A DNA stretch of 49,114 nt from Candidatus Moranbacteria bacterium CG_4_9_14_3_um_filter_44_28 (GTDB taxonomy: Bacteria; Patescibacteriota; Minisyncoccia; Moranbacterales; UBA11712): the NCBI GenBank assembly GCA_002790655.1, contig PFVO01000008.1:1-49114 (forward strand). Direction: 5' to 3'. The translations under genes were made by a program, and so were the position numbers. How positions within the stretch are numbered: the first letter of the stretch is position 1; every line of letters starts with the position of its first letter. Positions 11,222-47,808 of the stretch are shown here, piece after piece. Below the pieces are notes generated by a model. It worked only from the letters and a program-made list of their open reading frames with translations, was not told the origin of the DNA and made no database searches.

Positions 11222-12541
11222 ATGGCCGGATACAAAAAAGGAAAACTCGTCGCGGAGGGGAAAACGAAAAAAATTTGGGAAAACAAAAATGACCGCAAAA
11301 CGGTCATCGTTGAATACAAAGACGACATCACGGCTTTCAACGATCCCAAATTCACCAAAAAATTCAAAAGCAAGGGGAAGAGCTCTAATCACACAACCTG
11401 CCGGGTGTTCGAACTCCTCGCGAAAGCCGGCATTCCAACAGCCTACCTTGAACAAATTTCCGACATGGAGTTTGCGGCTGAAAAATGCGAGATGATTCTC
11501 TTGGAAGCCGTGTCCCGGCGCTATGCGTTCGGTAGCTATCTCAAGCGCAATCCCCAATTTGCGGCGCCTGTTGGCAAACCGCCGGTATATTTCCGCAAAC
11601 TGGTCAATGAACTTTTCATAAAAAGCACCAAAGGAAAATTGGTAATTGGCGGAGAAACGCTGGTGAAAGGGCTTACGATGGAGCAGGACGATCCGCTGAT
11701 TCTCGATCCTTTTCAGAAAAAATGGAAACTGATGTTTCCGAAAATACCGATTTGGGATCCGAAATCCGATTTGAAAAGAACCGTTGAGCGCAAAAAAGTG
11801 CTTCTGGGAGATTCGAAGCGGCTGGAGATTATAGACGAGATAATGCGAAAGACTTTTCTCGTCCTTGAAGGAGCATTTTCCCAAAAAAAATTCAGGCTCA
11901 TTGACATGAAAATTGAATTCGGGATTACGGAAAAAGGAAAGCTCGTCGTCGCGGATGTCATTGACAATGACTCCTGGCGGCTTCGCGATACGGAGTGGAA
12001 AGAATTTTCAAAACAGGCTTTCCGGGATGGAGAAGCGCTCGGCGAAGTTGAATTCAAATACGGGGTTGTGTCTGATCTGGTAAGCGATTTTCCGAATATC
12101 CCTTCCCAGGCATTGGTCTTGTGGACGGGTTCCGAAAAGGACGAAATGCCGGAAGTTCCCGAGATTCCCGGAATATTGATGATAAAAAAAGTTATTTCGG
12201 GGCATAAAAAGACTTCTTTTTGTCTTGACGAGCTAAAAAAACTCGAGAGAGAATTTCCGGGCGGCGGGGTTATCATCGCCAAAGTGGGAATGAGCAACGG
12301 GCTCGGGCCAATTCTTGCGACTCACACCCACTGGCCGGTGATTTCCATTCCGGCGAGTGCCAAGTCATTTCCGGACGATGTTTGGAGCGCGCTTCGCATG
12401 CCTTCCGACGTTCCCATGGCGCTTATCGAAAAAGACTCCAACGCGGTTGATTTCGCGCTCAACATTCTTGCCAAAAAAAATCCGATTCTCTATATGAACC
12501 GGAGGTACAAAATCGAACAGCTCGACACGGATACTAATTAA
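11222..12541 (+). CDS. purC: SAICAR synthetase fused to a C-terminal AIR carboxylase (PurE-like) domain
   Basis: EGKTK, DDITAF, LIDMKIEFG, ADVIDNDSWRL; then SGHK, GMSNGLGP, WSALRMPS. Confidence 0.9.
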   Translation: MAGYKKGKLVAEGKTKKIWENKNDRKTVIVEYKDDITAFNDPKFTKKFKSKGKSSNHTTCRVFELLAKAGIPTAYLEQISDMEFAAEKCEMILLEAVSRRYAFGSYLKRNPQFAAPVGKPPVYFRKLVNELFIKSTKGKLVIGGETLVKGLTMEQDDPLILDPFQKKWKLMFPKIPIWDPKSDLKRTVERKKVLLGDSKRLEIIDEIMRKTFLVLEGAFSQKKFRLIDMKIEFGITEKGKLVVADVIDNDSWRLRDTEWKEFSKQAFRDGEALGEVEFKYGVVSDLVSDFPNIPSQALVLWTGSEKDEMPEVPEIPGILMIKKVISGHKKTSFCLDELKKLEREFPGGGVIIAKVGMSNGLGPILATHTHWPVISIPASAKSFPDDVWSALRMPSDVPMALIEKDSNAVDFALNILAKKNPILYMNRRYKIEQLDTDTN

Positions 12542-20613: not shown

Positions 20614-20903
20614 ATCCCTCACCACTTTTACTTTTATGTATTTTATGTGTATCTCATAAAGAATGAGAAAAATGAGATTTACACAGGTTGTACAAGCGAT
20701 CTTAGAAAGAGAATAGCGGAGCATAATAAGAACAGAGTTGCGTACACAAAGCATAAAGGTCTATGGGAAATCAGATACTACGAGGCTTTCTCTTGCAAAT
20801 ACGATGCATTCAAGCGGGAAAAGAGCTTGAAAAGGCACGCGAGAGGAACTCAAGAGTTGAAAGAGCGGCTGGCTGGCAGTCTAAAGTAAAAGTGGTGAGG
20901 GAT
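20614..20903. mobile_element. GIY-YIG cassette bounded by perfect 21-bp inverted repeats
   Basis: ATCCCTCACCACTTTTACTTT (20614-20634) / AAAGTAAAAGTGGTGAGGGAT (20883-20903). Confidence 0.7.
20647..20889 (+). CDS. Stand-alone GIY-YIG nuclease (start uncertain)
   Basis: YVYLI..IYTGCTSDLRKRIAEHN..YT..W..YYEAF..DA.KRE..LK. ATG at 20636 is one base out of frame; GTG at 20647 is in frame. Confidence 0.88.
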   Translation: MYLIKNEKNEIYTGCTSDLRKRIAEHNKNRVAYTKHKGLWEIRYYEAFSCKYDAFKREKSLKRHARGTQELKERLAGSLK

Positions 20904-22186: not shown

Positions 22187-23188
22187 ATGTACTGTTTAGT
22201 TGACTTCAGAAACCGTCCTCAACTTCAATATACTTTCCGATCCCGCGGAAAAGCCCGCGAGTATCTCGGGAAAATAAAAAACAATCCTTTGGGAGTAACT
22301 GCCATTTATCCCGACGGCCGGCGGGAGTATTTTGAACAGGGCCTGCCCAACGGGTTTCTCCGGCACTGCGACAAGAGCGCCCAAATAAAAAAGGGCTGTC
22401 ACGCGAAATACAAAATCCGGGAACTCAATACCATTGACGGATTAAGAAGGAACGCGAGCACCCCGGAAAGCGCAAATCTTGGAAACTGGAGAGGAAAATC
22501 CGTTTTTTCTCTTTTTATGCTGGGGAATAAAAAAGTTTACGCGGGGCTGGCAATCGTTTCACTCATCGTATTTTCCTCTTCCTGGTATTTTCAAAATCAA
22601 TACGGAGAGAACGCCATTGCCCAGTCAGAAAACGCGGGAAATGAAACCTCCGGCCGGGTTGCCGGCGCGGCTGACGAGAAAATCGGGAATTCCGAAGAAC
22701 CGGCCGATTCGCTTCAGCTTGCCGACGAAGAAATCATTATGAGTCTTCTCGGAAAAATCGAGGAGGCAAAACAAGGAGAGTTTGAAACCGAAATTCTGCG
22801 CTACATCAAAGGCCGGCCGATGGAAAAAATGGCGCCCTATATCGCCAAACAGCCGAGAATCGTCGCCGCTTTCATTGTCGGAATTGCCATGAAGGAAAGC
22901 AAGTTTGGTCTTTACGCCCCGCACAGCGGCGGGCGGGATTGCTATAACTACTGGGGCTATAAAGGCCGGGAAAACACGACTGCTTCCGGATATTCCTGTT
23001 TCAATTCACCCGAGCATGCCATTCAGGTGGTCGGGAAAAAGATCAATTCTCTTGTCGCCCGGGGAATATCAAATCCGGCCCAGATGATCAGCTGGAAATG
23101 CGGCTCGACCTGCTCGTGGGACAACCCCGAAAACGTGCGCAAATGGATCGCGGACGTGGGAATTTATTTTCACAAGATAAACTCATAA
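22187..23188 (+). CDS. Membrane-anchored protein with C-terminal lysozyme-like domain (paralog 1)
   Basis: One TM helix; IVGIAMKESKFG..NYWGY..GYSCF.S. Confidence 0.65.
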   Translation: MYCLVDFRNRPQLQYTFRSRGKAREYLGKIKNNPLGVTAIYPDGRREYFEQGLPNGFLRHCDKSAQIKKGCHAKYKIRELNTIDGLRRNASTPESANLGNWRGKSVFSLFMLGNKKVYAGLAIVSLIVFSSSWYFQNQYGENAIAQSENAGNETSGRVAGAADEKIGNSEEPADSLQLADEEIIMSLLGKIEEAKQGEFETEILRYIKGRPMEKMAPYIAKQPRIVAAFIVGIAMKESKFGLYAPHSGGRDCYNYWGYKGRENTTASGYSCFNSPEHAIQVVGKKINSLVARGISNPAQMISWKCGSTCSWDNPENVRKWIADVGIYFHKINS

Positions 23189-23437: not shown

Positions 23438-24403
23438 TTGAAAAACTTGCCAATGAGTAACTGGAGTAAATCCGCTTTCTACGGGGGGATTTATACCAAA
23501 ACTCAACCGCAAACAAACTGCCTGCAGTGTGATGCGAAAATCAGCTGCAAATACTACAAATTCGCAAACCAGCTCAAAAACTATCAGGAAATTCTGAAGG
23601 CGGGCTGGGAGAAGTCAAAAAACTTGTCCCGTACCACAGGGACTTTCGGTCAGCTATATAGACACACCCAAACCAAAGTACAGGCAAAATGGCCTGTAGT
23701 GCGGGGACTATATCTTTCGATAAAAGACAACCTGAAGATCCACCTGACCAAAAAGCAGGAGCTTTACTGGCCGCTTTTGATTTCGGCCGTCCTTTTGCTT
23801 TTAGTTCTTGTTTCCAAAATCGCTTTTGCCGGGAGTCTCGCGTCGCCCAATAATTTTCCCATTGAGGATAGTTCGAAATTCAATCTGATCGGCTTTGAAA
23901 AGAAAACTGCCTCGGGAAAAATCTGCTCAAAAGATGAAAAAGCCGACAGCCGGATCGAAAAAGTAGCCGAAGCAAGCGACAATAAAAAAGAAGAGCTCAA
24001 AAACGAAATCGCAAGCGTCGTGAAAAATACTCCCATGGCCGCTATGATTGATTCTATTTCCGAAAAACCGCGTCCGGTCGCCGCTTTCATTGTCGGAATC
24101 GCGATGAAGGAAAGCAAATTCGGAGTCTACTCGCCGAAGAAGGACAGGCGGGATTGTTATAACTACTGGGGCTATAAAGGAAGAGAAAACGTGACAGCCG
24201 GCGGATATTCCTGCTTCAGCTCGCCCGAGCATGCCGTCGAAGTTGTTGGTGGAAAAATAGAATCACTTGTTGACCGCGGCGTGAAAAACCCGGCTCAAAT
24301 GATTTCCTGGAAATGCGGCCGATCCTGCGCCGGCCACGGCCAAGCCAACGTTCAGAAATGGATTTCGGACGTGGCGATATACTTCAATAGAATAAATTCA
24401 TAA
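23438..24403 (+). CDS. Membrane-anchored protein with C-terminal lysozyme-like domain (paralog 2; start uncertain)
   Basis: C-terminal ~125 aa aligns closely with paralog 1. Confidence 0.65.
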   Translation: MKNLPMSNWSKSAFYGGIYTKTQPQTNCLQCDAKISCKYYKFANQLKNYQEILKAGWEKSKNLSRTTGTFGQLYRHTQTKVQAKWPVVRGLYLSIKDNLKIHLTKKQELYWPLLISAVLLLLVLVSKIAFAGSLASPNNFPIEDSSKFNLIGFEKKTASGKICSKDEKADSRIEKVAEASDNKKEELKNEIASVVKNTPMAAMIDSISEKPRPVAAFIVGIAMKESKFGVYSPKKDRRDCYNYWGYKGRENVTAGGYSCFSSPEHAVEVVGGKIESLVDRGVKNPAQMISWKCGRSCAGHGQANVQKWISDVAIYFNRINS

Positions 24404-30887: not shown

Positions 30888-33401
30888 TTACTTTTCCATT
30901 TTCTCTATCTCGACCATCGTCTTTATCACCGTATCGGGATTCAAGGAAATCGAATCGATTTTTTCTTCAACGAGGAATTTGGCGAAATCGAGAAAGTCTG
31001 ACGGAGCCTGGCCGCAGATGCCGACTTTGCGGCGAGCTTTATGCGCTTTTTGGATCACTTGCCGGATAAGTTCTTTCACGGCATCGTTGCGTTCGTCATA
31101 GACATGCGAAACCTTGGCACTGTCGCGGTCCACTCCCAAAGTCAGTTGCGTCAAATCATTCGAACCGATGGAAAATCCGTCGAAAATTTTTGAAAATTCT
31201 TTTGCTAAAATAACATTCGAAGGAATTTCGCACATCACATAGACCTGAAGTCCATTCACGCCGCGTTTGAGACCGTATTTTTCCATTTCGGCGAGTACTT
31301 TTTTTCCTTCTTCGACCGTGCGGCAAAAGGGGATCATCGCTTTCATGTTCGTGAGCCCCATCTCGTCACGGACTTTTTTGAAAGCCAAACACTCAAGCCG
31401 AAACCCTTCTTTGTAGTCATCGTCGTAATACCGCGAGGCGCCCCGCCAGCCGATCATCGGATTTTCTTCCGCCGGCTCGAAATCGGCGCCGCCGATGAGA
31501 GTCGCGTATTCATTCGTCTTGAAGTCTGACATTCGGACAATCACATCCTTTGGATAGAAGGCGGCGCAAATCCGCCCGATCCCTTCGGCCAGTTTGTCCA
31601 CAAAAAATTCTTCTTTGTTTTTATAGCCCTGCGTAAGCTCATTGATTTTCTTTTTTTCCTCTTTGTCTTTCACTTTTTCAAAATGAATGAGCGCCATCGG
31701 ATGAATTTTGATGTATTCGGTGATAATGAATTCTTCGCGGGCGAGCCCCACCCCATCATTGGGGATGAAAGACAGGTCAAACGCCTGTTCGGGATTTCCC
31801 ACGTTCATCATTATTTTAGTTTTAGTTTTTTTGATTTCCCGGAGATTGGTTTTTTTGATTTCAAATTTCAAGAGTCCCTCATAGACGTGGCCCTCTTCGC
31901 CCTCGGCACAGCAAACTGTTACTGGTTTTGTGTCTTTGATGGCATTCGTTGCGTTTCCGGTTCCGACAATGCACGGAATCCCAAGCTCGCGCGAGACAAT
32001 AGCCGCGTGGGATGTCCTGCCGCCGGAATTGGTGACGATGGCCGCCGCAATTTTCATGATCGGCTCCCAATCCGGATCGGTCATCTCGGTCACCAAAACT
32101 TCTCCTTTTTTGAACTCGGAAATCTTGGCCACTTCTTTGATCACATTGGCTTTCCCTTGTCCAATCTTATTCCCCACCGCCGCGCCGGAGCATAAAATTC
32201 TTCCTTTTGATTTCAGAATATATTCTTCGAGAACATTTTTCTTTTTTTGCGACTGAACGGTTTCGGGCCGGGCCTGGACGATATACAAATTTTTGTCCCG
32301 TCCGTCTTTGGCCCACTCGATATCCATCGGTTTTTTGTAATGCTCTTCAATAAGCACTCCCCAGTTTGCCAACTTCAAAACTTCCTCATCCGTGAGACAA
32401 AAATGTTTCCGGTCTTCCTGAGAAACTGCCACGTTTTGCGTCGAAGCGCTTCCCCCGACGGAATAAACAAGTTTTGTTTCTTTGCTACCCAGCTTTTTCC
32501 CGACAATGGACTTAAAGCCCTTTTTGAGCGTCGGCTTGTGAACAAAAAACTCGTCCGGATTGACTTTTCCTTTGACGATATTTTCCCCGAGTCCCCAAGA
32601 GCCGTTGATGACAACAACATCTTTGAATCCAGACTCCGTGTCGATAGTAAACATCACCCCACTTGAAGCCTCATCCGAGCGGACCATCTTTTGTACGCCC
32701 ACCGAAAGAGCGATTTCGAGGTGATCAAAACCCTTATCCACGCGGTAGGAAATGGCCCGGTCGGTAAAAAGAGAAGCAAAACATTTCTTAATAGACTCCA
32801 GGAGCTGATATTCGCCGGTCACGTTGAGATATGATTCCTGCTGGCCGGCAAAAGAAGCTTCTGTTAAGTCTTCAGCAGTTGCCGAGGAGCGAACGGCGAC
32901 GTCCACTCCGCCCGCGAAATGATTGGTGTGGTCTTTTCTGTCCCAGGAAATTTTGAAGCTGCGACTGGGATTATATTCTTTGGAAAGTTTCACGTACGCG
33001 TCAACGATGGCATTCCGGAGGTCAACTGGAAATTCCGCCGAAAGAATGGCTTGGCGTGCCCGATATCCCCGCTCGGCCAGATTTCGCATATTACCGGTAT
33101 CAAGACCCTCGAGAATTTTTTCAATATCGTCATCAACTTCATTTTGGCGCAGGAAATACCGATACGCTTCCGAAGTTATCGCAAAGCCATCCGGTACTCG
33201 AATGCCTTTTTTTCGAAGATTCCGGTACATCTCCCCGAGAGAAGCATTTTTCCCACCAACGAGAGGAACGTCTTTGATGCCGGTTTCCCGAAACCAAAGA
33301 ATATATTTGTTTTTTCCGCCAGAGGCGCCTGCCCGAATTGCTTTGCGAATCAAAGCAGGCGGGGACCAGCCTTTGGCTAGCATTTTCTTATGGCTTATCA
33401 T
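30888..33401 (-). CDS. ppsA: Phosphoenolpyruvate synthase
   Basis: VGGKNASLGEM, AVRSSATAED, GGRTSHAAIVSRE, GFSIGSNDLTQ. Confidence 0.97.
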   Translation of the reverse strand: MISHKKMLAKGWSPPALIRKAIRAGASGGKNKYILWFRETGIKDVPLVGGKNASLGEMYRNLRKKGIRVPDGFAITSEAYRYFLRQNEVDDDIEKILEGLDTGNMRNLAERGYRARQAILSAEFPVDLRNAIVDAYVKLSKEYNPSRSFKISWDRKDHTNHFAGGVDVAVRSSATAEDLTEASFAGQQESYLNVTGEYQLLESIKKCFASLFTDRAISYRVDKGFDHLEIALSVGVQKMVRSDEASSGVMFTIDTESGFKDVVVINGSWGLGENIVKGKVNPDEFFVHKPTLKKGFKSIVGKKLGSKETKLVYSVGGSASTQNVAVSQEDRKHFCLTDEEVLKLANWGVLIEEHYKKPMDIEWAKDGRDKNLYIVQARPETVQSQKKKNVLEEYILKSKGRILCSGAAVGNKIGQGKANVIKEVAKISEFKKGEVLVTEMTDPDWEPIMKIAAAIVTNSGGRTSHAAIVSRELGIPCIVGTGNATNAIKDTKPVTVCCAEGEEGHVYEGLLKFEIKKTNLREIKKTKTKIMMNVGNPEQAFDLSFIPNDGVGLAREEFIITEYIKIHPMALIHFEKVKDKEEKKKINELTQGYKNKEEFFVDKLAEGIGRICAAFYPKDVIVRMSDFKTNEYATLIGGADFEPAEENPMIGWRGASRYYDDDYKEGFRLECLAFKKVRDEMGLTNMKAMIPFCRTVEEGKKVLAEMEKYGLKRGVNGLQVYVMCEIPSNVILAKEFSKIFDGFSIGSNDLTQLTLGVDRDSAKVSHVYDERNDAVKELIRQVIQKAHKARRKVGICGQAPSDFLDFAKFLVEEKIDSISLNPDTVIKTMVEIEKMEK
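33318..33378 (+). repeat. 61-bp composite palindromic repeat, copy 1, in the ppsA 5' end
   Basis: 56/61 identical to the reverse complement of 35500-35560. Confidence 0.9.
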
Positions 33402-33425
33402 TTATTTTTATTTTCAAATTTTGAA

Positions 33426-34868
33426 CTACTTTATCTCTTCTATCTTAACGAGACTCATATGCTCCCGTTTGACATGCGGGCGGCCGGCAACAATTACCAC
33501 CCGGTCACCTTTCTTAAACACTTTGTTTTTTTTGAGAGTTTCAATCGAACGATCGAGTAGCTCATCCAGATCCCGGCAGTCAGGGAGGATGAAGCTCTCA
33601 ACGCCCCAGACAAGGGTGAGTTGATTGCTTGTTTTCTCGTTGTTGGTCATCACGAACACTTCCTGCTCCGGCCGGTGGCGGGTAATCATCCGGGCTGTAA
33701 ATCCGCTGACGCTCGCCACTACAATCGCTTTTGCGCCGCTGTCTTTCAAAAGTTCGTGGGCCGATTGGGCCACCGCCGCCGAAACCGAAGACGTTTGGTC
33801 TCCCAAAAATCCGTGTCCGAGATCATCAAAAGGCGATTCTTCCGTTTTTTCGATAATTTGACGCATCGTCCGAACCGCTTCAACCGGATATTTTCCGCTG
33901 GCCGTCTCGCCGGAAAGCATAACCGCGTCGGCATGGTCAACCACGGCGTTGGCGACATCCGTCACTTCAGCCCGCGTCGGCCGGGGATTCCTGATCATCG
34001 AGTCAAGCATTTGAGTGGCTACAATGGCCGGCTTTCCCGCCCGAAGGCTCTTGGCTGTCATTTCTTTTTGCAAAATCGGAATCTCCTCCTGCGGCATTTC
34101 AATCCCAAGGTCGCCCCGGGCCACCATGATCGCGTCCGCCGCCCGGAGAATCTCGTCAAAATTTTTCACTGCTTCCCTCCGTTCAATTTTGGCAATCACC
34201 TGCGGCAGCCGGCCGTGGTTTTTTGTTTTTTTCTTGATCAATTTTTTGAGATTTCCAATTTCTCCGGCTGATCGCACAAAAGACATTGCCACAAAATCAA
34301 CATCTTGAGACAGAATAAAATCCAAAACTTCTTTGTCTTTTTGTGTTAGCGCTCCGATTTTTGCCGAGATTCCGGGAATATTCACACCTTTTTTCGGCTT
34401 GATAATTCCTTCGTTCATCGCTTCGCACTTCACGAACTTCCCGTTTTTGCCGATAACTTTCAGTTTGATCAATCCGTCTTCAATCAGAATCTCGTTGCCG
34501 AGTTTTGCCAGCCTAACTGCTTCCGGAAGGTCCAAAAAAATAATTTTTCCTGCTTCCCCCAATCTCCCCAATTTCCCCAATCTGCCTAATCCGGCTCCAA
34601 CCCGAACAATTTCTCCTCTTTTTACTTTTTGATCCTTGCCATTTGCTATCCTTATCCTCGGCCCCTGGAGATCCGCCATTATCCCAATCGGCCGTTTCAT
34701 CTTCTTCCCGATTTTCCTAATCTCTCTTATCACCCTCCCGTGCCAGGCAAAATCAGAGTGCGAAAAATTGAGCCGGGCGACGTTCGTCCCATCTTCAATT
34801 ATCTTCGTCAAAACTTTTCTTCCCTCCGACGCCGGGCCGATAGTGGCGATAATTTTGGTACGTTTCAT
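33426..34868 (-). CDS. pyk: Pyruvate kinase
   Basis: KRTKIIATIGPAS, ARLNFSH, IAKIE, MVARGDLG, ATQMLDSM, MLSGETA. Confidence 0.97.
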   Translation of the reverse strand: MKRTKIIATIGPASEGRKVLTKIIEDGTNVARLNFSHSDFAWHGRVIREIRKIGKKMKRPIGIMADLQGPRIRIANGKDQKVKRGEIVRVGAGLGRLGKLGRLGEAGKIIFLDLPEAVRLAKLGNEILIEDGLIKLKVIGKNGKFVKCEAMNEGIIKPKKGVNIPGISAKIGALTQKDKEVLDFILSQDVDFVAMSFVRSAGEIGNLKKLIKKKTKNHGRLPQVIAKIERREAVKNFDEILRAADAIMVARGDLGIEMPQEEIPILQKEMTAKSLRAGKPAIVATQMLDSMIRNPRPTRAEVTDVANAVVDHADAVMLSGETASGKYPVEAVRTMRQIIEKTEESPFDDLGHGFLGDQTSSVSAAVAQSAHELLKDSGAKAIVVASVSGFTARMITRHRPEQEVFVMTNNEKTSNQLTLVWGVESFILPDCRDLDELLDRSIETLKKNKVFKKGDRVVIVAGRPHVKREHMSLVKIEEIK

Positions 34869-34943
34869 GATCTTATTGTAAACCAAAACGAGCAAACTTA
34901 AAAGAGCTTGCTCGCCTTACATTTCAAGAAATTGCCGGCTGTT

Positions 34944-35294
34944 CTAACTTATCAGCTTGAAACCGCCAATCACCGGAAGCTCCTTCATTTCGCCTTTGGC
35001 CGCACTCACGATTCCCAAAATCATAAACACAAGTCCGGCAATGGCTACCAGCGGCATAAGGAAAATCCCGATTACAACGAACGAGAGAACCGCTGAAACC
35101 GTCCATCCGATAAATCCAAAGAGAAGAAGATCCAACTGCTGATTGGCATGAAATTTGGCAAAGGGGCTGTTTTTCGCATCCGTCACTAAAGGGATAAAAA
35201 ACAAAATCGGAATAATATAGCCAATAATAGCAAAAGCTTTGTTTTTTTCCGCGTCTTGCGGATCCGCTTTTTGAGTTTGGTTTTCTTCGGTCAT
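34944..35294 (-). CDS. Membrane protein (DUF4870-like)
   Basis: FAKFHANQ, three TM helices, C-terminal LPVIG. Confidence 0.8.
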   Translation of the reverse strand: MTEENQTQKADPQDAEKNKAFAIIGYIIPILFFIPLVTDAKNSPFAKFHANQQLDLLLFGFIGWTVSAVLSFVVIGIFLMPLVAIAGLVFMILGIVSAAKGEMKELPVIGGFKLIS

Positions 35295-35373
35295 AAATTC
35301 ACCTCGCTTTCTGTTTTAAAGATTTTTAATTTATTAGCAAACTTCCAAGTTCGACTTGATTTCCCTTACTATA

Positions 35374-35817
35374 TTAAAGCATACTTTTTAATTCTCGCAA
35401 AATATCGTCCGGGATTGGGTCTCTTTTCGGACTTATTCCCGAATACCGCCACGTACTGATCAAACGAATCTTTTGCTGCGTAAAAGTTTTTCTTTTTTCA
35501 GCCAAAGACTGATTCCCGCCTGCTTTGATTTGCAAAGCAATTCGGGCAGGTGCCTCTGGCATGACATTTTTACTTTTTCCTTTTATCTGGTACATTGCCC
35601 AAATTTCACTCGACCATACTCTTTTTCCATTTTTGGTATGAGTCGAGGCGGGTTGCATAACCGCGATGGTATTTGCCGCCACTCCCTCCTCCACTCTCTG
35701 CGGATTATTCACCAAGCGCAAAACTCTCTGAGCCGTCAATCCATAATGCCTCATCTTCCCAATGGCGTGCTGTGTCCACTCATATTTTTCCGTATTTTTG
35801 GGAATTTTAAATCGCAT
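35374..35817 (-). CDS. Hypothetical protein (possible DUF4258/BrnT-like fold) carrying a repeat insertion
   Basis: WTQHA..KM..YGL...V...NP; ISTWRY. Confidence 0.6.
   Translation of the reverse strand: MRFKIPKNTEKYEWTQHAIGKMRHYGLTAQRVLRLVNNPQRVEEGVAANTIAVMQPASTHTKNGKRVWSSEIWAMYQIKGKSKNVMPEAPARIALQIKAGGNQSLAEKRKTFTQQKIRLISTWRYSGISPKRDPIPDDILRELKSML
35500..35560 (-). repeat. 61-bp composite palindromic repeat, copy 2
   Basis: Reverse complement of 33318-33378 with 5 substitutions. Confidence 0.9.
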
Positions 35818-38820: not shown

Positions 38821-40129
38821 GGTCGTTCCAAGGAATTCTTTTTTTGCCGATTGCCATCGTTTCTTCCGCTCCTTTTCCGGTGACAATGACAATATCTCCG
38901 CGCTTTGCAACTTGCAGAGCTTTTTTTATCGCTTCGCGGCGATCCAATATACGCCAGGCGTTCATATTTTCTTTCCGGTATTTAGAGACTCCGTCAAAAA
39001 CTTCGTCAATAATTTTCTGTGGATCCTCATTATACGGATCTTCATTTGTTACGATACAATAATCCGCATGCCGCGCCACAATCTCTCCCATAATCGGACG
39101 CTTGCCTCGATCTCTTTCCCCGCACGCCCCAAACACAGCAATAATTTTCGACTCCCCCATTTTCCTTATTTCCCCAATCTCCCCGATTAATCGATACAAT
39201 TTCTCCAGCGAATCCGGCGTCACCGCGTAATCAACAATTATTTCAAGTCCGCGATCATTTTCGATGCGTTCCATTCTCCCCGGAATTTTTTTTATCTCTT
39301 CTAGCGATTCGGAAATTTTTTCGAGCGGAATTCCCTGTGAAAGCCCCACGCAAGTCGCCGCCAGAGCATTTTCGATATTAAATTCGCCAGGCAAATGTAA
39401 AGTGAATTGAGAATTGAGAATTGTGAATTGTGAATGATCGATATTCAGCTTAATATTTTCAGCTACAACTGTTTTAAAATTTGAAATTTGAACTTGATTT
39501 GAAATTTGAAATTTGAAATTTGAAATTTTTAAGGCATAGCCGTAAATTTTCCTCGCTGGATACTTCAGAAAATCTTCCGCATTCTCCATATTGAGATTGA
39601 CTACTGCTACCCCATTTTTATTTTTCGCTATCATCGCAAACAATTTTTCTTTCGCCTTCCGGTAATTTTCCATCGTCTTATGGTAATCCATGTGCTCCCG
39701 CGTCACATTCGTGATGACCACCACATTAAAATCCACGCCCCAAACCCGATTTTGATCCAGCGAATGCGATGTCACTTCGATCACTGCATAATCACAGCCG
39801 GCTCGAACCGCCTCTCGCAAATGTTTTTGCAACCGAAAACTTGAAAGGGTCGTGAATTTTGTATCGTTTATCCATTCTTTCTCGCCAATCTTAAAATTAA
39901 TCGTCGAAGCGACCGCGATTTTGCTTGCCCTGTGGCCATCAGGCTTTACGGGGCGCCCCGCTTCTTCCAAGATCTTCGCAATCATCTGCACTGTCGTCGT
40001 TTTTCCGTTCGTCCCCGTTACTCCGATAACCTTCAATTTTCTCGACGGAAACCCATACCAAACATTCGCCAAGACGGCTTGGAAGAGATGGTAGATATTT
40101 TTGATGGATTGGGGGATAACTTTCTTCAT
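38783..40129 (-). CDS. murE: UDP-MurNAc-tripeptide synthetase (MurE-like Mur ligase)
   Basis: GVTGTNGKTTT, EVTSH, EHMDYH, PGRME, VDYA, GERDRGKR, GKGAE. Confidence 0.9.
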   Translation of the reverse strand: MKKVIPQSIKNIYHLFQAVLANVWYGFPSRKLKVIGVTGTNGKTTTVQMIAKILEEAGRPVKPDGHRASKIAVASTINFKIGEKEWINDTKFTTLSSFRLQKHLREAVRAGCDYAVIEVTSHSLDQNRVWGVDFNVVVITNVTREHMDYHKTMENYRKAKEKLFAMIAKNKNGVAVVNLNMENAEDFLKYPARKIYGYALKISNFKFQISNQVQISNFKTVVAENIKLNIDHSQFTILNSQFTLHLPGEFNIENALAATCVGLSQGIPLEKISESLEEIKKIPGRMERIENDRGLEIIVDYAVTPDSLEKLYRLIGEIGEIRKMGESKIIAVFGACGERDRGKRPIMGEIVARHADYCIVTNEDPYNEDPQKIIDEVFDGVSKYRKENMNAWRILDRREAIKKALQVAKRGDIVIVTGKGAEETMAIGKKRIPWNDPKVIREVLRELG

Positions 40130-42796: not shown

Positions 42797-43318
42797 TTAT
42801 TTCATCCCCAGCTCTTTTTCCAGAGCGGCGATTTCAGTTTTAAGTTTCTCGATCTTATCCGGCATCTGCACAAGATATTGTTCCTTGCTTGCCAGCACTT
42901 TGAATTTTTTCAACGCTTCCTTGAGTTCACATCCGTCGTCTTGAGTATAAGATTCTTGAATCAGTTCACCGATTCGTTTGGCATATTCCGGGCATATCTT
43001 TATTACTTCTTTGGCTTCTTGCGCTTGGACTTCCGGAAGATACCATCTCCAAGTGAATTCGGAGGAAAATACATGAAAGCATACGACGAGATAGTACAGA
43101 AGAAAAAAACAACCAAAGACAATTTTCAATCGTGTTGATGATGTTCCGCCAAATTCAAGATGCAAAAGTATCCACAAACCGCATACTGTAGCCGCGAGAG
43201 CCGACAGAACAATCACCTTCAACACAAATCCCGATAGATTATTGCACCACCGCGCCAGTTTCTTTTGAAACGGATTCAGTTTTTTCATCGCCATATCTCC
43301 TTTGGATGTTTTATTCAA
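42797..43318 (-). CDS. Hypothetical membrane protein (2 TM + coiled coil); start may be ~43294
   Basis: Two hydrophobic segments; AAGGAG precedes the internal ATG. Confidence 0.65.
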   Translation of the reverse strand: MNKTSKGDMAMKKLNPFQKKLARWCNNLSGFVLKVIVLSALAATVCGLWILLHLEFGGTSSTRLKIVFGCFFLLYYLVVCFHVFSSEFTWRWYLPEVQAQEAKEVIKICPEYAKRIGELIQESYTQDDGCELKEALKKFKVLASKEQYLVQMPDKIEKLKTEIAALEKELGMK

Positions 43319-43335
43319 TTGTTAAACAACAGCCC

Positions 43336-43474
43336 TTTATAGATATTTCTCAATTTAGTGTCAAGTATTTTGTCTAATTTAAAAGAATAATTGGCTTTTA
43401 TAACAGCAGTAATGCGATTATTGATTGTAATTGTTGACAATTTTATTGACACTAAAATATAAGCGTGCTATCCT
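43336..43474. promoter_or_regulatory. Divergent sigma70 promoters sharing a mirrored 21-bp motif
   Basis: Minus: TTGACA(43364)-17-TATAAA. Plus: TTGACA(43446)-17-TGnTATCCT. Confidence 0.7.
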
Positions 43475-46917: not shown

Positions 46918-47808
46918 TTACTTCTGGCACCGGGGGCAAAAGAAGGTCCCGCGTTGCCCCATTTTTTCTCTCTGAATAATTGTACCACACCGCGGACATT
47001 TCTTGCCAGCCTGACGGTAGACTTTCATAACTTCCTGAAATCTTCCCGGCGCGCCAGCTGTGTCGCGGTAGTCGGAATCTGACGTCCCGCGAAGTTTTAT
47101 CGCTTTTTCAAGAACTTTTTTGATAGCTATGAATAATTTTCGCCTCTCTTCTTTTTTTACTTTATCCGCCGGGCGGCTCGGCAAAATTCCGGCTTCAAAC
47201 AAAATTTCGCTGATATAAATATTTCCGATTCCGGCAATTTTACTCTGGTCCATCAAGAGTAGCTTGATTTTCGTTTTTCGCTTGTCCAGAATCTCGTCAA
47301 ATTTTTCAAAAGTGAAATCGGCGTTCATTGCGTCCACTCCTAACTTCCCGATTTCCCCAATCTCCCCGATTTTATCCGAATCCACCAACATTATTTTTCC
47401 AAATTTTCGAAGATCCGAAAACTCCAACGTTCTCCCGGATTTGAGGTAAAAAATATGATGAATATATTGATTGACTTTTTCAGAAAAATAATCACCCCCC
47501 CTTTTGTTCCCCCCCTTGGCAAGGGGGGGAGGTGGAGGGGGGATCCTGTAATTTTTCGGCTTAACGAGCAAATGTCCCGTCATTTTGAGATGAATATAAA
47601 TCGTTCTCCCACCCGATAAATTCAAAAAGATATTTTTTCCAATTCTTTTCGCTCCCAAAATTTCTCTATCCCTTATCTCTTTCTCAAATCTCTCGAGCGG
47701 TATTTTCACCGACTTTTTCCAGTCACTCCAAAAACCGGTGATTATATCACCCTTGATTTTTCCGTTCAAATCCGAAATGATTGTTTGAACTTCGGGTAAT
47801 TCCGGCAT
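46918..47808 (-). CDS. mutM: Formamidopyrimidine-DNA glycosylase
   Basis: MPELPEV, HLKMTG, GIGNIY..E, CPRC..CPRCQ. Confidence 0.96.
   Translation of the reverse strand: MPELPEVQTIISDLNGKIKGDIITGFWSDWKKSVKIPLERFEKEIRDREILGAKRIGKNIFLNLSGGRTIYIHLKMTGHLLVKPKNYRIPPPPPPLAKGGNKRGGDYFSEKVNQYIHHIFYLKSGRTLEFSDLRKFGKIMLVDSDKIGEIGEIGKLGVDAMNADFTFEKFDEILDKRKTKIKLLLMDQSKIAGIGNIYISEILFEAGILPSRPADKVKKEERRKLFIAIKKVLEKAIKLRGTSDSDYRDTAGAPGRFQEVMKVYRQAGKKCPRCGTIIQREKMGQRGTFFCPRCQK
47491..47545. repeat. C/G-tract palindromic element in frame inside mutM
   Basis: ATCACCCCCCC..TCCCCCCCTTGGCAAGGGGGGGA..GGGGGGAT, read as IPPPPPPLAKGGNKRGGD. Confidence 0.8.

Follow-up and report, generated by a model that had tools for sequence, protein, structure and literature searches.

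The window analysed here comprises positions 1 to 49,114 of contig PFVO01000008.1 from Candidatus Moranbacteria bacterium CG_4_9_14_3_um_filter_44_28 (Patescibacteriota). It carries two copies of a 61-nucleotide (nt) composite hairpin element, which lie in opposite orientations in two genes of the minus strand, one encoding a ppsA-type phosphoenolpyruvate (PEP) synthase and the other a conserved protein of 147 amino acids (aa). Taken together, our data make it quite probable that the element is a selfish hairpin repeat, resembling repetitive extragenic palindromes (REPs) and Rickettsia palindromic elements (RPEs), that survives in genes only where the reading frame is kept. The genome holding the window (G000; 794 kb, 48 contigs, 43.5% G+C) was studied within a set of 41 genomes of its order, G000 included; the relatives compared at the two sites belong to other genera, none to the genus of G000.

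Two inverted copies lie in frame in two genes

The initial annotation had described inverted copies of a 61-nt unit in two minus-strand genes, and a repeat finder together with the list of open reading frames (ORFs) bore this out. The copies at 33318-33378 and 35500-35560 form the longest inverted repeat of the window, 61 nt long, 92% complementary and 2121 nt apart. The 36-nt core of the element matches the window twice, with 0 and 1 mismatch, compared with 0.00 matches expected from 100 dinucleotide shuffles. The peptides that had been read from the two copies agree exactly with the ORF translations. The features concerned are as follows.

30888..33401, minus strand: ppsA-type PEP synthase / pyruvate, water dikinase, 837 aa; candidate starts ATG 33401, ATG 33383 and a TTG within the element
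33318..33378, plus strand (orientation set by the core, CCTGCCCG to CAGGCGGG): composite copy 1; minus-strand reading, residues 9-28 of the PpsA ORF, AKGWSPPALIRKAIRAGASG
33318..33327, plus strand: outer arm of copy 1, GCCAGAGGCG, half of a 30-nt double mini-hairpin family
33328..33363, plus strand: inner 36-nt imperfect palindrome of copy 1, PpsA residues 14-25, PPALIRKAIRAG; covariance model E 1.7e-6
33364..33378, plus strand: outer arm of copy 1, GACCAGCCTTTGGCT
35374..35817, minus strand: conserved 147-aa protein with no Pfam family; element in a disordered linker, residues 82-104
35500..35560, minus strand: composite copy 2; minus-strand reading, residues 87-106 of the 147-aa ORF, PEAPARIALQIKAGGNQSLA
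35515..35550, minus strand: inner 36-nt imperfect palindrome of copy 2; covariance model E 4.3e-7; identical 36-mer in G015:C82 and G004:C4

The element has a G+C content of 62%, versus 43.5% genome-wide. Five of the six frames are free of stops in copy 1 and four of the six in copy 2. Copy 2 carries a TGA in the frame used by ppsA, and therefore only the frame in use is kept open there. Each copy is predicted to fold into a three-tier hairpin, with DNA folding energies of -17.8, -16.3, -11.3 and -13.6 kcal/mol (z -3.05 to -1.47) and sense-RNA folding energies of -27.1 (z -2.31) and -30.3 kcal/mol (z -4.45). Beside copy 2, bases 35495-35499 (GAAAA on the minus strand) are also present in the copies of G015 and G004, two relatives described below; counted with these bases, the insert would measure 66 nt, that is, 22 codons. 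Both copies are intact, with no indel or joint, in contigs from four public groundwater or aquifer runs, which may include the source sample. Because these contigs agree on both copies, an error peculiar to one assembly can be discounted.

Host genes and their orthologous sites

The ppsA ORF contains all three PEP synthase / pyruvate phosphate dikinase domains by Pfam, the first of which begins at residue 46. Its orthologues are 74-89% identical; 16 related genomes hold full-length ones with 78-89% identity, and further genomes hold more fragmentary ones. The matches of these orthologues start at query residue 22-34, i.e. past the element, and the usual start of PpsA orthologues is M-K-x-K-YILWF. 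The G000 N-terminus reads MISHKKMLAKGWS[PPALIRKAIRAG]ASGGKNKYILWF, and upstream of YILWF the codons ATG, GTG and TTG occur only at M1, at M7 and as the TTG inside the element. The initial annotation had placed the element within the PpsA N-terminus, and the start codons favour this: no ATG, GTG or TTG lies between the element and the conserved YILWF region, so that at least half of the element would be translated from any canonical start. Probably the entire element is translated as part of PpsA; a start at a non-canonical codon farther down is conceivable.

A DNA alignment of the ppsA 5' ends revealed this site preserved in four states: empty, half, full outer, and outer plus inner. G001 and G006 have no element, G015 and G002 carry one mini-hairpin (M-T/A-A-S/F-GGK), G011 and G007 carry a double mini-hairpin with a gap of exactly 36 nt at the position of the inner unit, and G000 alone has the doublet with the 36-nt core at the junction TC^CGCC. 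The PpsA proteins of G011 and G000 share the start MIxxxKML.

As for the surroundings of ppsA, pyruvate kinase (33426-34895) lies directly upstream of PEP synthase (30888-33401) on the same strand, with a gap of 24 nt; the products catalyse opposing reactions, and the hairpin stands at the boundary of the two genes. Another short repeat family (TTCCCCAATCTCCCCGATT-like) occurs in the window at 34547-34591, 39162-39188 and 47345-47371; its first two copies form a tandem inside the ORF for pyruvate kinase, in the stretch between element copies 1 and 2, and give the peptide LGRLGKLGRLGEAGK.

The second ORF also proved to be a real gene, with matches in 32 of the 41 related genomes (G000 included) and 17 invariant columns in an alignment of 30 orthologues. 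The family consists of two conserved blocks and a linker whose length and content vary in nearly every genome. The closest orthologues are 125 aa long and lack the element, which amounts to about 22 extra residues in the hypervariable, disordered linker. An AlphaFold model built on the orthologue alignment predicted the fold with confidence: the mean predicted local distance difference test score (pLDDT) was 80.4, and values below 50 occurred only at residues 82-104, the element. A Foldseek search of this protein against the PDB gave nothing significant, the best matches being RelE/HigB/BrnT-type toxins at E 0.11. Repeat-like peptides (ISKSQFPISKQIPNPKSQ, FAKASAG) occupy the same linker in orthologues from relatives (loci L049-L077), and a further insert, of 22 aa, stands at a second site in the L072 orthologue, suggesting that the loop has been filled repeatedly.

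The element is thus in frame in each of two real genes, in keeping with the earlier proposal that it is compatible with coding in both orientations. The same fact might suggest that a peptide module with a function of its own, or convergence of low-complexity coding sequence, underlies the similarity instead of a repeat at the DNA level. We consider this extremely improbable: the peptide read from one orientation is unrelated to that read from the other, disorder is predicted for the segment, other copies are non-coding, and conservation is seen at the DNA level, with base-pair covariation (below).

Outer and inner units are separate repeat families

The outer unit is a 30-nt double mini-hairpin, tccGCCAAAGGCGGA-TC-AGCCTCTGGCTGa, made of two 15-nt mini-hairpins, and the inner unit is a 36-nt imperfect palindrome, CCTGCCCG-N20-CAGGCGGG. 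When loose-match rows were disregarded, eight stand-alone copies of the outer unit and five composites were kept in G000. A covariance model trained on 82 copies located the core at 11 distinct sites in G000 at a cut-off of E<=0.01, the inner unit occurring alone at nine sites besides the window copies. All five composites have the inner hairpin at one junction, TC^CGCC, and both relative orientations occur.

The two window copies: inner hairpin 36 nt
C12:4255 and C41:13249: inner hairpin 21 nt, opposite relative orientation
C24:3855: inner hairpin 21 nt

These stand-alone copies, the shared junction of the composites and the 36-nt ppsA gap in G011 and G007 substantiate the nested structure that had been proposed for the element. 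Nesting is also seen within the core family: at C31:7187-7253 of G000 one core copy is inserted within another, and 4 of 127 family copies lie within another family member.

Additional copies lie in frame in other genes. SecA has the core in the linker that precedes its SEC-C motif, an ATP-grasp protein has it as well, and so does KsgA/RrnaAD, where two separate stretches make up the domain match; RtcB has a short composite in frame.

The core stems covary

Covariation was counted in 82 core copies (41 distinct sequences), and only positions free in the search pattern were scored. Among the distinct sequences, pair 16:26 is AU in 17, UA in 16, GC in 2, GU in 3 and other in 3, and pair 17:25 is CG in 31, UG in 5, UA in 3 and other in 2. 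A second, register-shifted helix contains pair 11:21 (AU 15, UA 11, GC 6, GU 1, other 8) and pair 12:20 (UA 29, CG 4, UG 2, GC 1, other 5). No slid control and 0 of 500 shuffles reached either helix in covariation score or in percentage of paired cells. Since the shuffle control keeps the relatedness among copies in, these counts support, rather than prove, that the core stems are under selection for pairing.

The two helices are mutually exclusive on one strand and mirror each other across the element's centre. Either strand could adopt one shape, with a 6-bp outer stem, a 5-nt 5' bulge and an inner stem, and the same shape from either strand would suit recognition as single-stranded DNA (ssDNA). 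An Rfam scan of nine loci with related copies, other than the window copies, returned only tmRNA and one sub-threshold chance lncRNA.

The composite and its core in other genera and phyla

The same 36-mer with the same outer arms was found at G015:C82 and G004:C4, in two other genera of the family. These composites are 92-97% identical to the window copies; their flanks are unrelated, rich in stop codons and non-coding. The composites of G000, G015 and G004 have common boundaries, GCCAGAGGC...GCCTTTGGCT(GAAAA). The suggestion that the repeat is mobile, or at least copied, gains support, as the composite is missing from all examined orthologues and present at unrelated loci in two genera.

Two copies that are close, inverted and 92% alike could also result from a single local event, such as an inverted duplication or gene conversion over 2.1 kb, with no mobility of the element. 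However, the same composite stands at unrelated loci in two genera, and both of its parts have many further copies in the genome. Moreover, the G015 composite differs from copy 1 at 2 of 61 positions and from copy 2 at 3 of 61, whereas the window copies differ from each other at 5. The G015 copy is therefore nearer to each window copy than these are to one another, which rules out a purely local duplication, and we regard the local explanation as very unlikely. Given the near-identity across genera, either the element spread between lineages recently or its sequence is strongly constrained.

A gapped core pattern matched 23 of the 41 genomes of the order, while the reversed-pattern control gave 0 in any genome. 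A stricter 23-base pattern, searched against a collection of species-representative genomes, matched at least 126 stretches. According to 80 listed record titles, the taxa among these matches include many Patescibacteria classes, Verrucomicrobia, Lentisphaerae, Kiritimatiellia, Gammaproteobacteria, Bdellovibrionales and an Akkermansia metagenome-assembled genome (MAG). One identical 36-mer accounts for 19 of the 127 family matches. Individual genomes hold 93 core copies (G043, Kiritimatiellia), 20 (G042, Nomurabacteria) and 18 (G041, Saccharibacteria).

The Saccharibacteria MAG G041 has in-frame core copies within the N-termini of ribosomal proteins S9 (rpsI) and S11 (rpsK) and inside IF-1 (infA); the loci concerned are L292 (G041:C14:300-5700) and L289 (G041:C1). 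At the Nomurabacteria locus L216, the flanks of the core copy closely resemble those of the rpsI copy L150. G043 has seven inverted copy pairs about 70-115 nt apart (counted by eye), which resemble REPIN doublets. Two further patterns were discarded. A spacing of about 3 kb between copy pairs in three genomes is explained by copy density, and the count of 12 of 31 relatives' copies in stop-free frames of at least 180 aa was not used; at least one of these, L095, is an antisense artefact between rplK and rplA.

Comparison with known repeats

RPEs are about 100-150 bp long and are not known outside Rickettsia. In passages of PMC3733652 they are described as palindromic repeats that lie in frame within protein genes, N-termini included, and are tolerated as extra peptide, and RPE-1 is called a 'longer palindromic insertion'. 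The element described here is likewise inserted in frame in conserved genes whose orthologues have empty sites. Unlike RPEs, its units measure 30, 36 and 61 nt and its core occurs in many phyla; the likeness between the two is one of behaviour.

GTAG REPs are 20-40 bp imperfect palindromes with many dispersed copies, mostly intergenic and some intragenic, according to sections of the same article (PMC3733652). Those inside ORFs are there said to be often N-terminal, and such REPs may fall outside the true gene (Di Nocera et al. 2013, PMC3733652). The core resembles the REP/REPIN-RAYT system in being an imperfect palindrome of this size with many dispersed copies, but it has no GTAG tag and no copy beside any of the 47 Y1_Tnp loci examined.

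NTS/SRM hairpins, as portrayed in portions of PMC11893778, are shared across distant phyla and flank the gene for a small GIY-YIG nuclease, by which they are recognised in single-stranded form. The core is similarly a hairpin repeat of distant phyla. At one locus of G041, a core copy precedes each of two tandem GIY-YIG genes. In contrast to the SRM-Ssn system, it has no CGTC tag, the published SRM motif matched 0 of 127 family copies and 0 of 2 window copies, and the other 16 GIY-YIG loci have no copy.

Like miniature inverted-repeat transposable elements (MITEs), the element is short and non-autonomous, with inverted ends and several copies. Unlike them, it has no consistent target-site duplication, no related full-length transposon was found, and its 8-nt ends, CCTGCCCG and CAGGCGGG, form only an imperfect inverted repeat. 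The GC clusters and double-hairpin elements of fungal mitochondria are also GC-rich mini-palindromes in an AT-richer genome and also occur in frame within ORFs; they are organellar, and their sequence is unrelated to that of the element.

On tags and motif, the core is outside the GTAG and CGTC REP superfamilies and the Ssn/SRM system; the repeat family is new, and its behaviour is of a kind already known. Searches of published full text with core 8-9-mers gave only unrelated primer coincidences among the matches listed, literature searches on such repeats in Patescibacteria or the candidate phyla radiation (CPR) listed nothing on the subject and one unrelated preprint, and the core strings are absent from the main text of Di Nocera 2013. 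Because the core fits neither a tagged REP superfamily nor the Ssn motif, its cognate enzyme may await discovery, as was recently the case for NTS repeats.

Candidate mobilising enzymes

Genes for Y1 transposases (RAYT/IS200-type, Y1_Tnp) are present in 29 of the 41 genomes, with three in G000. Element and Y1 gene occur together in 18 genomes, the element only in 5, Y1 only in 11 and neither in 7, an association that is weak and confounded by kinship. A RAYT link was rejected, as there was no adjacency at the 47 Y1_Tnp loci. The three Y1_Tnp-like ORFs of G000 lie at C38:~11798-12493, C40:~104-775 and C20:~42826-43437. The one on C38 is bracketed by direct copies of a hairpin sequence of about 30 nt; the one on C20 has flanking hairpins with CTAC after them, a typical RAYT/REP arrangement, and its hairpin differs from the core.

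At the tandem GIY-YIG place in G041, a unit of core copy plus GIY-YIG gene is duplicated, so that a copy precedes each gene. Among the 18 GIY-YIG loci examined this is the only such place, the three GIY-YIG loci of G000 have no core copy, and a GIY-YIG/Ssn link would have to rest on this one place. The window itself contains a GIY-YIG nuclease domain ORF at 20641-20844 (plus strand; E 2.4e-15), with no core copy within 1.5 kb.

A link to DUF559 nucleases was inconsistent and was dropped: two such genes of G000 are bracketed by another hairpin, CCCTCTCCTTTATAAGGAGAGGG. Each of these genes (C31:10416-10739 and C1:1513-1830) lies within hairpins of the type CCCTCTCC-TTTATAA-GGAGAGGG. One core copy is situated about 160 nt downstream of one G000 DUF559 gene, and a core copy in G023 overlaps the start of an ORF that resembles a DUF559 nuclease by eye. 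TnpB (PF07282) and IS110 (PF01548) gave only sub-threshold matches in G000. The genes between paired copies in G043 are ordinary (ilvB/ilvN) or have no Pfam match. Among the Y1, GIY-YIG and DUF559 loci examined, no neighbouring transposase or nuclease is consistently tied to the core.

Selfish element or host function

We conclude that the composite reached several places by copying as a single unit, and that in G000 two copies landed in opposite orientations, one at the 5' end of ppsA and the other in the inter-domain linker of the small gene. In both genes the element would be translated as a harmless extra peptide. The copies probably persist because they add whole codons, have no stop in the frame used and lie in regions that are predicted to be disordered or are variable. 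The element would be a non-autonomous selfish hairpin, handled as ssDNA by an enzyme acting in trans, and it may prefer existing hairpin tips as landing sites; such nesting recurs in the five composites, at C31:7187-7253 and in the 4 of 127 family copies noted above.

Several observations weigh against this explanation. No consistent target-site duplication was seen by inspection of 37 flank pairs. Copies with GTAG or CTAC 10 nt or less from an end number at most 5 of 127, and those with CGTC or GACG at most 6 of 127. No core copy was present at 35 Y1_Tnp loci of G000 and its relatives or at 12 of G041-G043 (0/35 and 0/12), and five genomes with core copies gave no Y1 match. Core copies were found at 2 of 18 GIY-YIG loci, both spanning the one tandem place in G041. 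The contigs of the four public runs contained no empty-site variants at the elements, and hence there is no sign of current movement in the population. The translation of the ppsA element rests on start-codon logic and comparison with orthologues. In addition, some intergenic copies lie beside T-runs, which would also fit a function for the host.

This last point leads to an alternative in which the hairpin is mainly host-functional, serving to terminate or attenuate transcription, to stabilise mRNA as a stem or to bind a host protein, and is kept by selection, with the copies in genes as by-products; at ppsA, it would be a 5' regulatory hairpin between pyk and ppsA. The covariation of the stems indicates selection on pairing, and identical 36-mers recur across phyla (one sequence in 19 of 127 copies). 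Several copies are intergenic with T-runs or bracket operons (rplA in G011, ilvB/ilvN in G043). Furthermore, the sense-RNA hairpin of -27.1 kcal/mol begins 6 nt past ATG 33383, and pyk and ppsA, 24 nt apart, encode opposing reactions. However, the in-frame copies in SecA, KsgA, RtcB and IF-1 could not act as terminators without harm to the gene, the orthologous sites are empty in every other genus examined, and copies occur in both orientations and nested in each other. Covariation does not separate the two explanations, because a selfish element may also need its hairpin. On balance, we find a primary role for the host rather unlikely and favour the selfish repeat.

A more far-reaching form of the selfish explanation is possible rather than probable, and we offer it tentatively and as a whole. 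In this form, the 36-nt core is a selfish ssDNA hairpin element shared among phyla, either strand of which folds alike; it would insert preferentially at hairpin tips, including those of its own kind, be moved by a structure-specific enzyme and be transferred horizontally between phyla. In the ultra-small genomes of the CPR, it would colonise core genes, such as those for IF-1, S9, S11, SecA, KsgA and PpsA.

If the element is selfish, the window offers an unusually clean natural experiment on the entry of selfish DNA into proteins. Its core is common, sometimes base for base, to Patescibacteria, bacteria of the Planctomycetes-Verrucomicrobia-Chlamydiae (PVC) group, Gammaproteobacteria and others. 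For annotation, such inserts account for odd N-terminal extensions and split domain matches in CPR proteins, and they should not be taken for frameshifts or new domains.

Other repeats in the genome and window

G000 also contains eight 'long forms' of about 105-112 nt, with ends GCCTGCCCGAAATGCTTTG ... GCATTTCAAAGCAGGCGGGC as in the window variant, at the following places.

C2:12942, C6:8776, C8:1489, C20:5787, C30:15798, C35:13128, C36:13639 and C41:26139: long forms

Their interiors of 66-72 nt are AT-rich and largely unrelated, four being alike and four unrelated. Ns interrupt one long form; each of the other seven is intact, has 0-1 open frames and is therefore intergenic. The long forms had no Rfam match. 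Elsewhere in the window, a 300-nt direct repeat with 72% identity (22840-23139 and 24055-24354) probably reflects paralogous genes.

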